This document shows positions 45,079-45,544 of a stretch of DNA of 64,000 bases, piece by piece (position 1 is the stretch's first letter; each line of letters begins with the position of its first letter). A program made the position numbers and the translations under genes. The notes beneath the pieces are model-generated. The model saw nothing but the letters and a program-made list of their open reading frames with translations. It did not search any database and was not told the origin of the DNA. The stretch is from Dehalococcoidia bacterium (GTDB lineage Bacteria > Chloroflexota > Dehalococcoidia > Plut-88900), in assembly GCA_965207225.1 (NCBI GenBank), contig CBDBLV010000005.1, positions 960,001 through 1,024,000 of the forward strand. Reading direction: 5' to 3'.

Positions 45079-45544
45079 AGGCGATGGAAGGTCCATCGAC
45101 CACACGCGGCATACCCATCTTTTGGGTCCATCCCGCGTCTGCGCCCCCTTAAAGGCGCACTCACCCCCGGCTACAGGCCAGGGGGACGACCCGACACCCT
45201 CGGGTCCCCGGAGGCCATCGCGCCCCGGCTCGACTCCCCCGTCGCTTCCTTCGGAACTCCCCCATACCACGGCGACGGGAAGGGGTATACGCCCGACCCC
45301 CTCCGAACGGTCGGAAGCGTCTGGGGTTCATACCCCTTTCTGGGCTCCCCCGTCTTACCTCTCGGAGACCCCTGTTCACCCGGAGACGGCAGAGAGTTCG
45401 CGCTCCCATCCCTCCGAATGGTGGAGCGCTTCCCGCATACGGACAGGCCGCAAAGGGAAACTCCCTCTAATCCTGCCGACATGTGGGTCTGGCGCAGCCT
45501 GGCCTCCCGGCCCCTGCGCCTTGGTCATGGTCCTTCCATCGCCT
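45079..45544. ncRNA. Candidate large structured RNA or structured element (unidentified)
   Basis: Ends pair (AGGCGATGGAAGG/CCTTCCATCGCCT 13 bp + CCAT/ATGG + GACCA/TGGTC) and enclose about ten consecutive hairpins; strand unresolved, G-U pairs lean minus. Confidence 0.55.

Follow-up and report, generated by a model that had tools for sequence, protein, structure and literature searches.

What kind of genetic element is the densely folded segment at positions 45079-45544 of the window, the 64,000-nucleotide stretch of Dehalococcoidia contig CBDBLV010000005.1 that was analysed at its full length (G000:C5:960001-1024000, where G000 is the source genome and G001, G006, G007 and G008 are other genomes compared with it)? 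The initial annotation of this locus offered two answers, an undescribed large RNA or a structured non-autonomous element with terminal inverted repeats, and each captures a part of what is found. The segment matches no known RNA family and has a strong, compensated structure; it is not a single RNA gene, but one of 42 elements in its genome, part of a larger unit with its own plus-strand promoter and leader, and homologous to a fragment of a terminase gene. It is likewise a many-copy structured repeat, but one whose inverted arms lie inside the repeated unit and not at its termini. With moderate confidence, the element is interpreted here as a genus-specific, duplicated cassette that combines a promoter with a long structured 5' leader and is transcribed on the plus strand; a reused promoter-leader is the simplest account of the promoter, the orientation towards neighbouring genes, the sites kept across species, the RNA-type covariation and the narrow taxonomic range taken together.

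With elements in the source genome defined by their 12-nt arms (one mismatch tolerated), 41 arm pairs lie 216-553 nt apart, and together with one copy that has a weaker 3' arm they make up 42 arm-bounded elements; these fall into 11 sequence clusters of 14, 5, 4, 4, 4, 3, 2, 2, 2, 1 and 1 members. The window copy belongs to family A, represented in the source genome by seven copies, three long and four short, the short ones lacking an internal 111 nt. The two other full-length copies share 91% and 89% identity with the window copy; outside the source genome, G008 (six copies), G007, G006 and G001 carry complete copies that are 75-93% identical. In the alignment of the seven copies from the source genome, homology is lost upstream of approximately position 44880 and past CCATCGCCTAC at 45546; the whole repeated unit in its long form is 667 bp (44880-45546, plus strand), and the span originally assigned to the element, accurate for the fold, was too narrow for the unit that is copied.

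The additional 5' part of the unit contains the signals expected of a transcription start. A consensus scan identified a sigma-70-like promoter at 44892-44921 on the plus strand (TTTGCA/TTGCAC, a spacer of 17-18 nt and a TG-extended TATACT) that scores 9/12 with TG before the -10 element; the scan gave four sites against 0.4 expected in shuffled sequence. Despite changes of individual letters, the promoter-like site is retained in 16/16 aligned units, and it reads TTGACC..TATATT in G007, G006 and G001. In the minimum free energy (MFE) structure of 44930-45560, a 5' hairpin with stem letters largely kept in the 16 units (44930-44957) occupies the predicted transcript start, and is followed by a leader domain (44963-45075) closed by pairing of AGGAAAGG (44963-70) with CCTTTCCT (45068-75). 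The leader helix encloses an AAGGAG motif (44974-79) and an ATG (44983-85), a combination present in AAGGAG-like form in 15/16 units; the remaining unit has ACG in place of the ATG. In D, the most frequent subfamily, the promoter is of another type (TTGACA-17-TATCAT or TATATT) and the leader has AAGGAGG and no ATG; the closing arms and inner hairpins are shared with family A. A leader of recognised type precedes 38 of the 42 elements (31 of type D, seven of type A), AAGGAG is found upstream in 39/42, and 31/42 have a TTGACA-type regular-expression match on the C-rich strand, at a distance of 135-366 nt upstream.

The fold of the body itself, approximately ten hairpins closed by a long stem, is largely as originally described. 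Its ends pair as claimed: the arms at 45079-45096 and 45527-45544 are 18 nt long and 94% complementary, and the MFE structure lengthens the stem to about 22 bp (5' arm 45079-45100, 3' arm 45522-45544); in the 5' arm, 22/23 positions are invariant in 15/15 copies. Among the enclosed helices listed in the initial annotation, those at 45104-38, 45140-59, 45164-84, 45187-205, 45232-84, 45341-98, 45399-428 and 45491-520 are present in the plus-strand MFE structure. Compared with 100 dinucleotide shuffles per strand, the segment 45079-45544 folds at -236.5 kcal/mol on the plus strand against a shuffle mean of -184.5 (z -8.08), and at -262.6 kcal/mol on the minus strand against a mean of -216.6 (z -6.67); on either strand, 0/100 shuffles were as low. 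A comparison with 4227 Rfam models, among them OLE, ROOL, GOLLD, HEARO, raiA, RNase P, tmRNA, SRP, 6S and the group II intron, applied at gathering score over the whole window and permissively at E up to 10 over 44300-46500, agrees with the view that the segment belongs to no known RNA family, since 45079-45544 had no match at either level. Five tRNAs (38094-38677) were the sole matches at gathering score, and the 75 rows of the permissive scan were all sub-threshold, most of them on palindromic repeat modules; a noise-level mir-207 row at 44962-45075 falls in the leader of the unit.

Changes among related copies indicate that this structure is maintained. Covariation was evaluated in 15 distinct family-A bodies from five genomes, and the resulting covariation and pairing figures are flattered because the structure was derived from the same alignment: the consensus holds 128 pairs, with 97.2% of 1787 cells paired against 36-47% when partners were slid by one to three columns; compensatory changes occur in 11 pairs (37 cells), numbers that 1/500 and 0/500 shuffles reached, respectively; and the covariation score is 0.100 against 0.070, with 0/500 shuffles reaching 0.100. 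Covariation resides mostly within the first 110 alignment columns, as most pairs in the 3' two thirds never vary because that region is so conserved. Two anchor pairs extend the comparison to the other subfamilies. The pair under CCGTC/GACGG, a motif located in 15/42 elements, is G-C in nine and T-A in six; the first pair below the CCCTCCGA loop, located in 21/42 elements, is C-G in 14, T-A in four and C-A in three. Both anchor pairs switch cleanly between subfamilies, and the structure of the body is under selection. Among 12 subfamily representatives, nine have z-scores of -4.1 to -8.6; those of the remaining three are -3.2, -2.7 and -1.1.

Two structural details did not survive this comparison. 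The proposed pseudoknot between 45208-17 and 45500-10 is 81% paired over the 15 copies with no compensatory pairs, and its central A-U is present in 1/15 copies, the window's own. A preference for the minus strand had been read from helices continuous through G-U pairs; in the alignment, the 108 pairs common to both consensus folds include 22 G-U cells on the plus strand and 16 on the minus strand, and the consensus energies are alike (-139 kcal/mol for plus and -142 for minus, or -149 for the minus strand in a separate run). The sense strand is most likely the C-rich plus strand rather than the minus strand, as indicated by the promoter, the leader and the downstream genes alike.

For 38/41 elements of the source genome the downstream gene is co-oriented (binomial p 1.0e-8), three are convergent, and one further element lies at a contig end; all 38 downstream open reading frames have Pfam matches, to more than 30 different families. 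Among them are genes encoding UvrA, PNPase, RecA, GyrB, RpoB, NusA, ribosomal protein S2, LeuRS and a Glu/Gln-tRNA synthetase. The others encode peptide deformylase, Lgt, FAD synthetase, FolD, AdoMet decarboxylase, FBPase, MoaA, a catalase-peroxidase-type peroxidase, electron transfer flavoprotein (ETF), an RNase D-like protein, two CoA-transferases, several amidohydrolases, luciferase-like monooxygenases, M24 and S58 peptidases, an aminotransferase, a Rieske protein, an MFS transporter and one IS481-type integrase. The integrase gene (rve, HTH), 276 nt downstream of the element at G000:C1:38513-38917, is the only mobile-element gene among the 38. Outside the source genome, in 80 stretches fetched from other genome records with gene calls lacking a Pfam check, 39 elements were co-oriented with the downstream gene, two were convergent and one was without a gene (p 7.8e-10); of the two convergent cases, one stems from an unrelated bacterium where the arm pair is a coincidence. 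The association with particular genes is kept across species: an element lies upstream of etfB in 4/4 other genomes examined, though of differing subfamilies. Upstream of recA an element is present in 2/5 genomes, of rpoB in 3/5 and of gyrB in 3/5; the elements at these three genes are all co-oriented and all have a promoter match.

This placement bears on the possibility that the elements are a family of free-standing, trans-acting large RNAs, each transcribed from its own promoter and ending before the next gene, for example at terminators of the repeat modules, with stem and loops that bind a common partner. Every copy has its own promoter, the structure is strong, covarying and without Rfam match, the arms are invariant across copies of 75% identity, and in the window a terminator-like hairpin stands 255 nt past the unit and etfB has a promoter-like site of its own, all of which would suit such an RNA. 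However, co-orientation in 38/41 and 39/41 copies, mostly at 50-600 nt from the next gene, is unneeded for an RNA acting in trans; in subfamily D, 100-190 nt separate the element from the following open frame and no terminator was noted; and it would be unusual for one trans-acting RNA to exist as some forty divergent copies. A trans-acting RNA family is therefore considered unlikely, and the position of the elements upstream of genes and in the same orientation is better accommodated by a cis-acting 5' leader or mobile promoter.

The taxonomic range of the family is narrow. Exact 12-nt arms number 58 in the source genome and 16-56 in eight congeners, against 0-1 in three other genera of the same family; a control with reversed arms found 0-1 exact 12-mers. 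Used as a DNA query, the unit had matches in 8/8 other genomes of the genus and in 0/3 other genera of the family, with a single borderline match (E 9e-4) in 29 other families, and a distant blastn search of a phage collection with the unit gave no match. A scan for the 17-mer of the 5' arm through the genomes of 185,579 species (596 Gb) matched at least 100 stretches; among the 80 matches listed, multiple matches per genome were confined to records titled 'Dehalococcoidia bacterium', and the other listed records had single matches each, approximately the chance expectation for a 17-mer in 596 Gb.

Could such a repeat be a selfish DNA element of the MITE, REP or Correia type, its arms serving mobility or recombination, its promoter carried as cargo and its site bias reflecting tolerated insertions? 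Inverted repeats of 18-22 bp, many copies in modular subfamilies, equal folding of both strands and a subfamily type that differs at orthologous sites are all in keeping with that proposal, and the elements lie in islands of other repeats: the query 44000-46800 alone has 349 matches in the source genome, which is unusually rich in modular intergenic repeats. Several features speak against it. No transposase lies between the arms in any copy of the source genome, and only 3/44 arm pairs less than 4 kb apart exceed 553 nt (2.1-2.4 kb), enclosing ordinary genes as judged from their open reading frame translations; the arms are internal, as the conserved unit reaches about 200 bp further in the 5' direction to include promoter and leader; no target duplication is visible by eye at the unit ends in the seven-copy alignment, a weak point as the flanks are other repeats; both arms correspond to terminase codons rather than to the ends of insertion sequences; and the sites of the elements are kept across species. 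On this evidence a purely selfish repeat is an improbable explanation. An autonomous transposon with the same ends was rejected on the ordinary genes held by the long arm pairs in the source genome. A retron was also set aside, as the neighbours of the elements are ordinary genes and no adjacent reverse transcriptase was seen, in the course of an inspection that did not include a genome-wide reverse transcriptase search.

A further possibility is an invertible DNA switch, in which a recombinase flips the body between its arms and alters the 5' untranslated region of the downstream gene. Clostridioides difficile is known to have such switches within 5' untranslated regions, and invariant inverted repeats of 15-22 bp, 300-460 bp apart in the 5' regions of many genes, would have the appropriate layout. 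Against this, the orientation of the body relative to the leader is constant in 38/42 elements of the source genome, in 16/16 family-A units and in 8/8 elements within 15 orthologous stretches, as judged on assemblies and contigs in which rare flipping would escape notice; covarying inner hairpins are needless for a switch; and the same arms occur inside intact terminase-like genes, which inversion would destroy. Six public sequence sets containing the segment came from two studies, all contigs of unspecified kind, and none was listed as RNA. Among contigs of four sequencing runs from one sample, covering 44600-46000, the 15 of 16 joints examined skip or return between repeat modules with no strand change at the arms, although short contigs cannot exclude rare forms. 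A loose contig end at 45100 agrees with the short-form copies. A recombinational switch is thus the most doubtful of the interpretations weighed here.

The arms lead to the origin of the body that the proposed leader cassette carries. A profile of the body, run against the whole source genome with nhmmer, matched part of an intact gene (G000:C1:234375-234633, E 2.6e-10) as well as the loci of a second family, B. This gene is one of two intact terminase-like paralogs of 467-507 codons (G000:C1:233552-235075 and G000:C5:241269-242744); PHROGs identifies the source gene as a terminase large subunit (E 8.4e-5 to 9.2e-4), and ESM Atlas features give it a score of 0.99, with the best family-bearing matches (10/10) in the Terminase_6C/6N set. 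The protein had no Pfam match at E 0.01 and no PDB sequence match at E 1. The family-A body corresponds to approximately residues 283-420 of the terminase-like gene and ends at the same place as the family-B fragment; by homology, it is a descendant of codons ~283-420 of a terminase-large-subunit-like gene.

Overall, the A-type leader occurs at 17 loci of the source genome, divided among family A (seven loci, where it is followed by the structured body), family B (seven loci, followed by in-frame terminase-like fragments) and family C (three loci, followed by another body). At the family-B loci, the promoter is the same as in the window unit, and the A-type leader and its ATG are fused in frame to residues 239-419 of the terminase-like protein, at 62-64% identity in the two best copies. 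Family B comprises G000:C5:1617081-1618475, G000:C4:456321-457421 and five other loci; the frame continues into repeat modules, some copies hold tandem duplicated pieces of the fragment, and four of the seven loci have a co-oriented downstream gene. The family-C loci (G000:C5:1626075, G000:C4:63588 and G000:C4:589145) share the leader region with AAGGAG and ATG and have another promoter as well as another body; their open frames measure 191-264 codons, and a co-oriented gene follows 750-1010 nt downstream in 3/3.

The closing stem is already present in the terminase-like genes. The nhmmer alignment places the 5' arm on GACGATGGAAGGTTCC of the intact gene (codons S-D-D-G-R-F, extending to S-D-D-G-R-F-L-D over the whole arm), and GGAACCTCCATCGTC (codons G-T-S-I-V) stands in the place of the 3' arm; the two blocks, at 824-839 and 1217-1231 of the terminase-like gene on contig C1, are 393 nt apart in both intact genes and complementary at 15/15 positions with one bulged A. 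Resampling of synonymous codons according to the usage of the source genome attained 15 matches in 7/200,000 trials, and the homologous region has z-scores of -3.3 and -3.0 in the two intact genes, compared with -0.9 in the gene's 5' half. The arm codons are different (GGGGF-type) in 13 homologs from other genera, so the full stem belongs to this genus. The terminase helix is 70.1% paired over 16 sequences against 41-56% with partners slid, and 2/500 shuffles reach 70.1%; these values are no more than suggestive of a long-range stem in the terminase gene that might be older than the genus. Folding becomes stronger along a series that starts with family B and the intact gene (z -3), passes through arm-bounded forms still resembling terminase (-2.7 to -4.8) and reaches the D and A forms (-6.1 to -8.6). 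At E <= 1e-30, the terminase-like source gene was found in 97/151 sampled genomes of the class (68/110 genera), mostly once each, and within the genus at three to five matches per genome with fragments counted; its wide and even spread suggests a domesticated phage-type gene, for example in a gene-transfer-agent-like cluster, rather than scattered prophages.

Another possibility considered is that family A encodes a protein, fast-evolving and rich in proline and arginine, from the ATG at 44983. In the window, the open frame from this ATG extends through the body and the flanking repeats (44983-46308, plus strand; 441 codons and a stop). The AAGGAG motif lies 4-7 nt before the ATG, and the ATG frame contains no stop in 16/16 family-A units (148-194 codons), against 2-5 and 0-3 stops in the other two frames; distinct stop columns in the three frames of the alignment number 0, 6 and 16, and when the 322 substitutions were moved to random sites with the same base, the frame was open in all copies in 2/5000 trials. 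Past the unit end, unrelated repeats add between 67 and more than 1503 nt to the ATG frame, which is the longest of the three frames in 10/14 copies. It stops 191 nt before etfB in the window and 87 nt before etfB in G008, and elsewhere 68 nt before a CoA-transferase gene and 13 nt before the rpsB open frame. The substitution pattern is not that of a protein: variable sites are distributed over the codon positions as 32/29/28, the ratio of synonymous to non-synonymous changes is about 6:31, the coding score is -0.02 per codon (real genes 0.19-0.32, off frames -0.22/-0.24), and the predicted product has no Pfam and no PHROG match. The frame used over the first 110 nt of the body differs between long and short forms, compensated frameshifts separate the copies, 3/16 units shift frame near the end, and subfamily D does not have such a frame. 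What is preserved is the lack of stops, and not an amino acid sequence; a family-A protein is accordingly very improbable. The contrary pattern, homologs that conserve codons and not base pairs, had been named in advance as grounds for abandoning a structured RNA, and the opposite is seen here, with pairs kept and codons not. A rolling-circle reverse-transcription template with an endless open reading frame was tried as an explanation and rejected, as only 459 and 462 among the 16 body lengths (350-475 nt) are divisible by 3.

From these observations a working model of the promoter-leader cassette can be outlined. Each cassette would supply a sigma-70-like promoter of high strength, a leader bearing a Shine-Dalgarno-like purine run, a body of hairpins spanning 300-470 nt and an invariant stem of 15-22 bp, and would form the 5' part of the transcript of the next gene: etfB at the present locus, and recA, rpoB, gyrB, uvrA, nusA, pnp, rpsB, leuS, def and approximately 28 others elsewhere. 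After its origin from terminase codons, the body would have evolved under RNA-type constraint, retaining pairs and not amino acids. In subfamily A, ribosomes starting at the leader ATG may read through the body and the flanking repeats, and such translation could guard the C-rich transcript against Rho and against terminator-like hairpins in the repeats. The amount of transcription reaching the downstream gene would then depend on whether AAGGAG and ATG are accessible or sequestered by the leader helix. RNase III may find a natural target in the invariant stem; the genome encodes both this enzyme and Rho.

Conserved hairpin loops, at 45291-45310 and 45407-45420 in the window, carry CCCUCCGA, which contains the anti-Shine-Dalgarno core CCUCC. 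Every leader type, that of subfamily D included, has AAGGAG(G), and the CCUCC loops may possibly contact the leader or a ribosome-binding site. A more far-reaching and rather speculative proposal is that the host has adopted the terminase-born RNA domain as a shared leader, by which about 40 core genes are tied to one factor in a genus-wide RNA regulon derived from a viral gene fragment; the factor would read the invariant stem and the CCUCC-bearing loops in the transcripts of recA, uvrA, gyrB, rpoB, nusA, pnp, rpsB, leuS, def, folD and ribF, among others. This proposal is doubtful at present. In E. coli, nusA, pnp, recA and gyrB are cold-induced, but the idea of a cold-shock regulon was dropped and forms no part of the interpretation.

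A number of points weigh against the interpretation of the elements as promoter-leader cassettes, or limit how far it can be extended. Copy number, promoter motifs, orientation, covarying structure, terminase homology and the stop-free frame are observed directly, whereas transcription with its strand and end points, action in cis and the step involving translation and Rho are inferred from sequence; both strands fold equally well, so that the strand is not told by base pairs alone, and the leader by itself is not unusually stable (z -0.9). Subfamily D is without the ATG and has 2-7 stops in every frame; consequently, the translation step outlined for subfamily A cannot be general. The orientation bias could reflect just selection against promoters firing into gene ends and imply no regulatory role, the gene calls around the elements came from a crude codon-usage caller trained on the source genome and were checked against Pfam in that genome alone, and the promoter regular-expression scan covered the upstream flank on the C-rich strand, not the opposite flank as a control. 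Congeneric genomes are related and do not constitute independent samples. Finally, the window copy is loosely linked to etfB (46499-47299, plus strand; Pfam PF01012, E 1.7e-37), across a gap of 956 nt that includes the terminator-like hairpin at 45800-45841, and etfB has a promoter-like site of its own at 46378-46407 (TTGACA, 18 nt, TACAAT, TG; 11/12), about 90 nt before the gene, distinct from the cassette promoter and a better match. The case for the window copy itself is weaker than that for most other copies.

The surroundings of the window copy illustrate the repeat-rich setting of the family. Short repeat modules make a mosaic of the 2.1-kb gap that separates a dehydrogenase gene from etfB; they include a CTGTCATTCCGA..GAGGAATC hairpin module at 44426-44457, 44642-44673 and 45735-45766, and an identical 29-mer at 44798-44826 and 45636-45664. 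Terminator-like hairpins with 19-bp stems followed by TTCTTCTCTC occur at 44726-44766 and at 45800-45841 (plus strand, 19 pairs in the scan); the latter lies outside the unit, between it and etfB, in a separate module that recurs many times in the source genome. At a greater distance, the five tRNA genes of the window are clustered within 584 nt on the minus strand (38094-38677).

Among described systems, putative mobile promoters and promoter-bearing repeats come nearest. The survey by Nijveen, Matus-Garcia and van Passel describes highly similar promoter sequences before unrelated genes of one genome, with no known mobility mechanism and with regulatory RNA motifs that may ride along; the survey considered stretches of 100 nt at >=80% identity, and most of its families were pairs (Nijveen, Matus-Garcia and van Passel, 2012; PMC3575422). 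The present family has the same defining trait, near-identical promoter-bearing leaders (types A and D) before non-homologous genes at 38/42 elements, and differs in its size of 500-670 bp, its approximately 40 copies in 11 subfamilies, its covarying fold, its terminase origin and its cross-species sites. The same source counts Correia, ERIC and REPIN elements as promoter-bearing repeats (PMC3575422). The cassette differs from these repeats in its internal arms, its body 3-4 times longer with about ten hairpins, and its protein-coding source. Correia, ERIC and REPIN are intergenic folding repeats of 100-160 bp, co-transcribed with their neighbours, with inverted repeats at the element ends and, in Correia, target duplications.

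Large structured RNAs such as OLE, ROOL, GOLLD, HEARO and raiA resemble the body in their length of several hundred nucleotides, their many helices and their narrow range; GOLLD and ROOL are often phage-linked. In contrast to the approximately 40 copies found here, each before a gene, these RNAs are mostly single-copy genes. The long 5' leaders of mgtA/mgtL, tna and pnp are controlled by translation of a leader open reading frame together with Rho, or by RNase III cutting. The cassette is like them in its sequestered ribosome site, an open reading frame that would decide read-through and a stem suited to RNase III. However, those leaders are gene-specific and short, with short open reading frames, whereas a single leader type would serve about 40 unrelated genes here, with an open reading frame of 200 to more than 700 codons and no conserved stop. 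Size, fold, origin and the number of copies placed before core genes set the element apart from its nearest described counterparts. A literature search found no description of this element, a thin basis for considering it absent from print.

As a general lesson, a striking fold may belong to a member of a repeat family, and the number of copies and the neighbouring genes deserve a check before a new RNA gene is named. If the interpretation as a duplicated promoter-leader cassette is true, the family would provide a natural case of a protein-coding fragment that became a structured RNA element, and of large-scale promoter and leader reuse before essential rather than accessory genes; it could also give the DNA repair, transcription and translation genes of these uncultured Dehalococcoidia a shared point of control.

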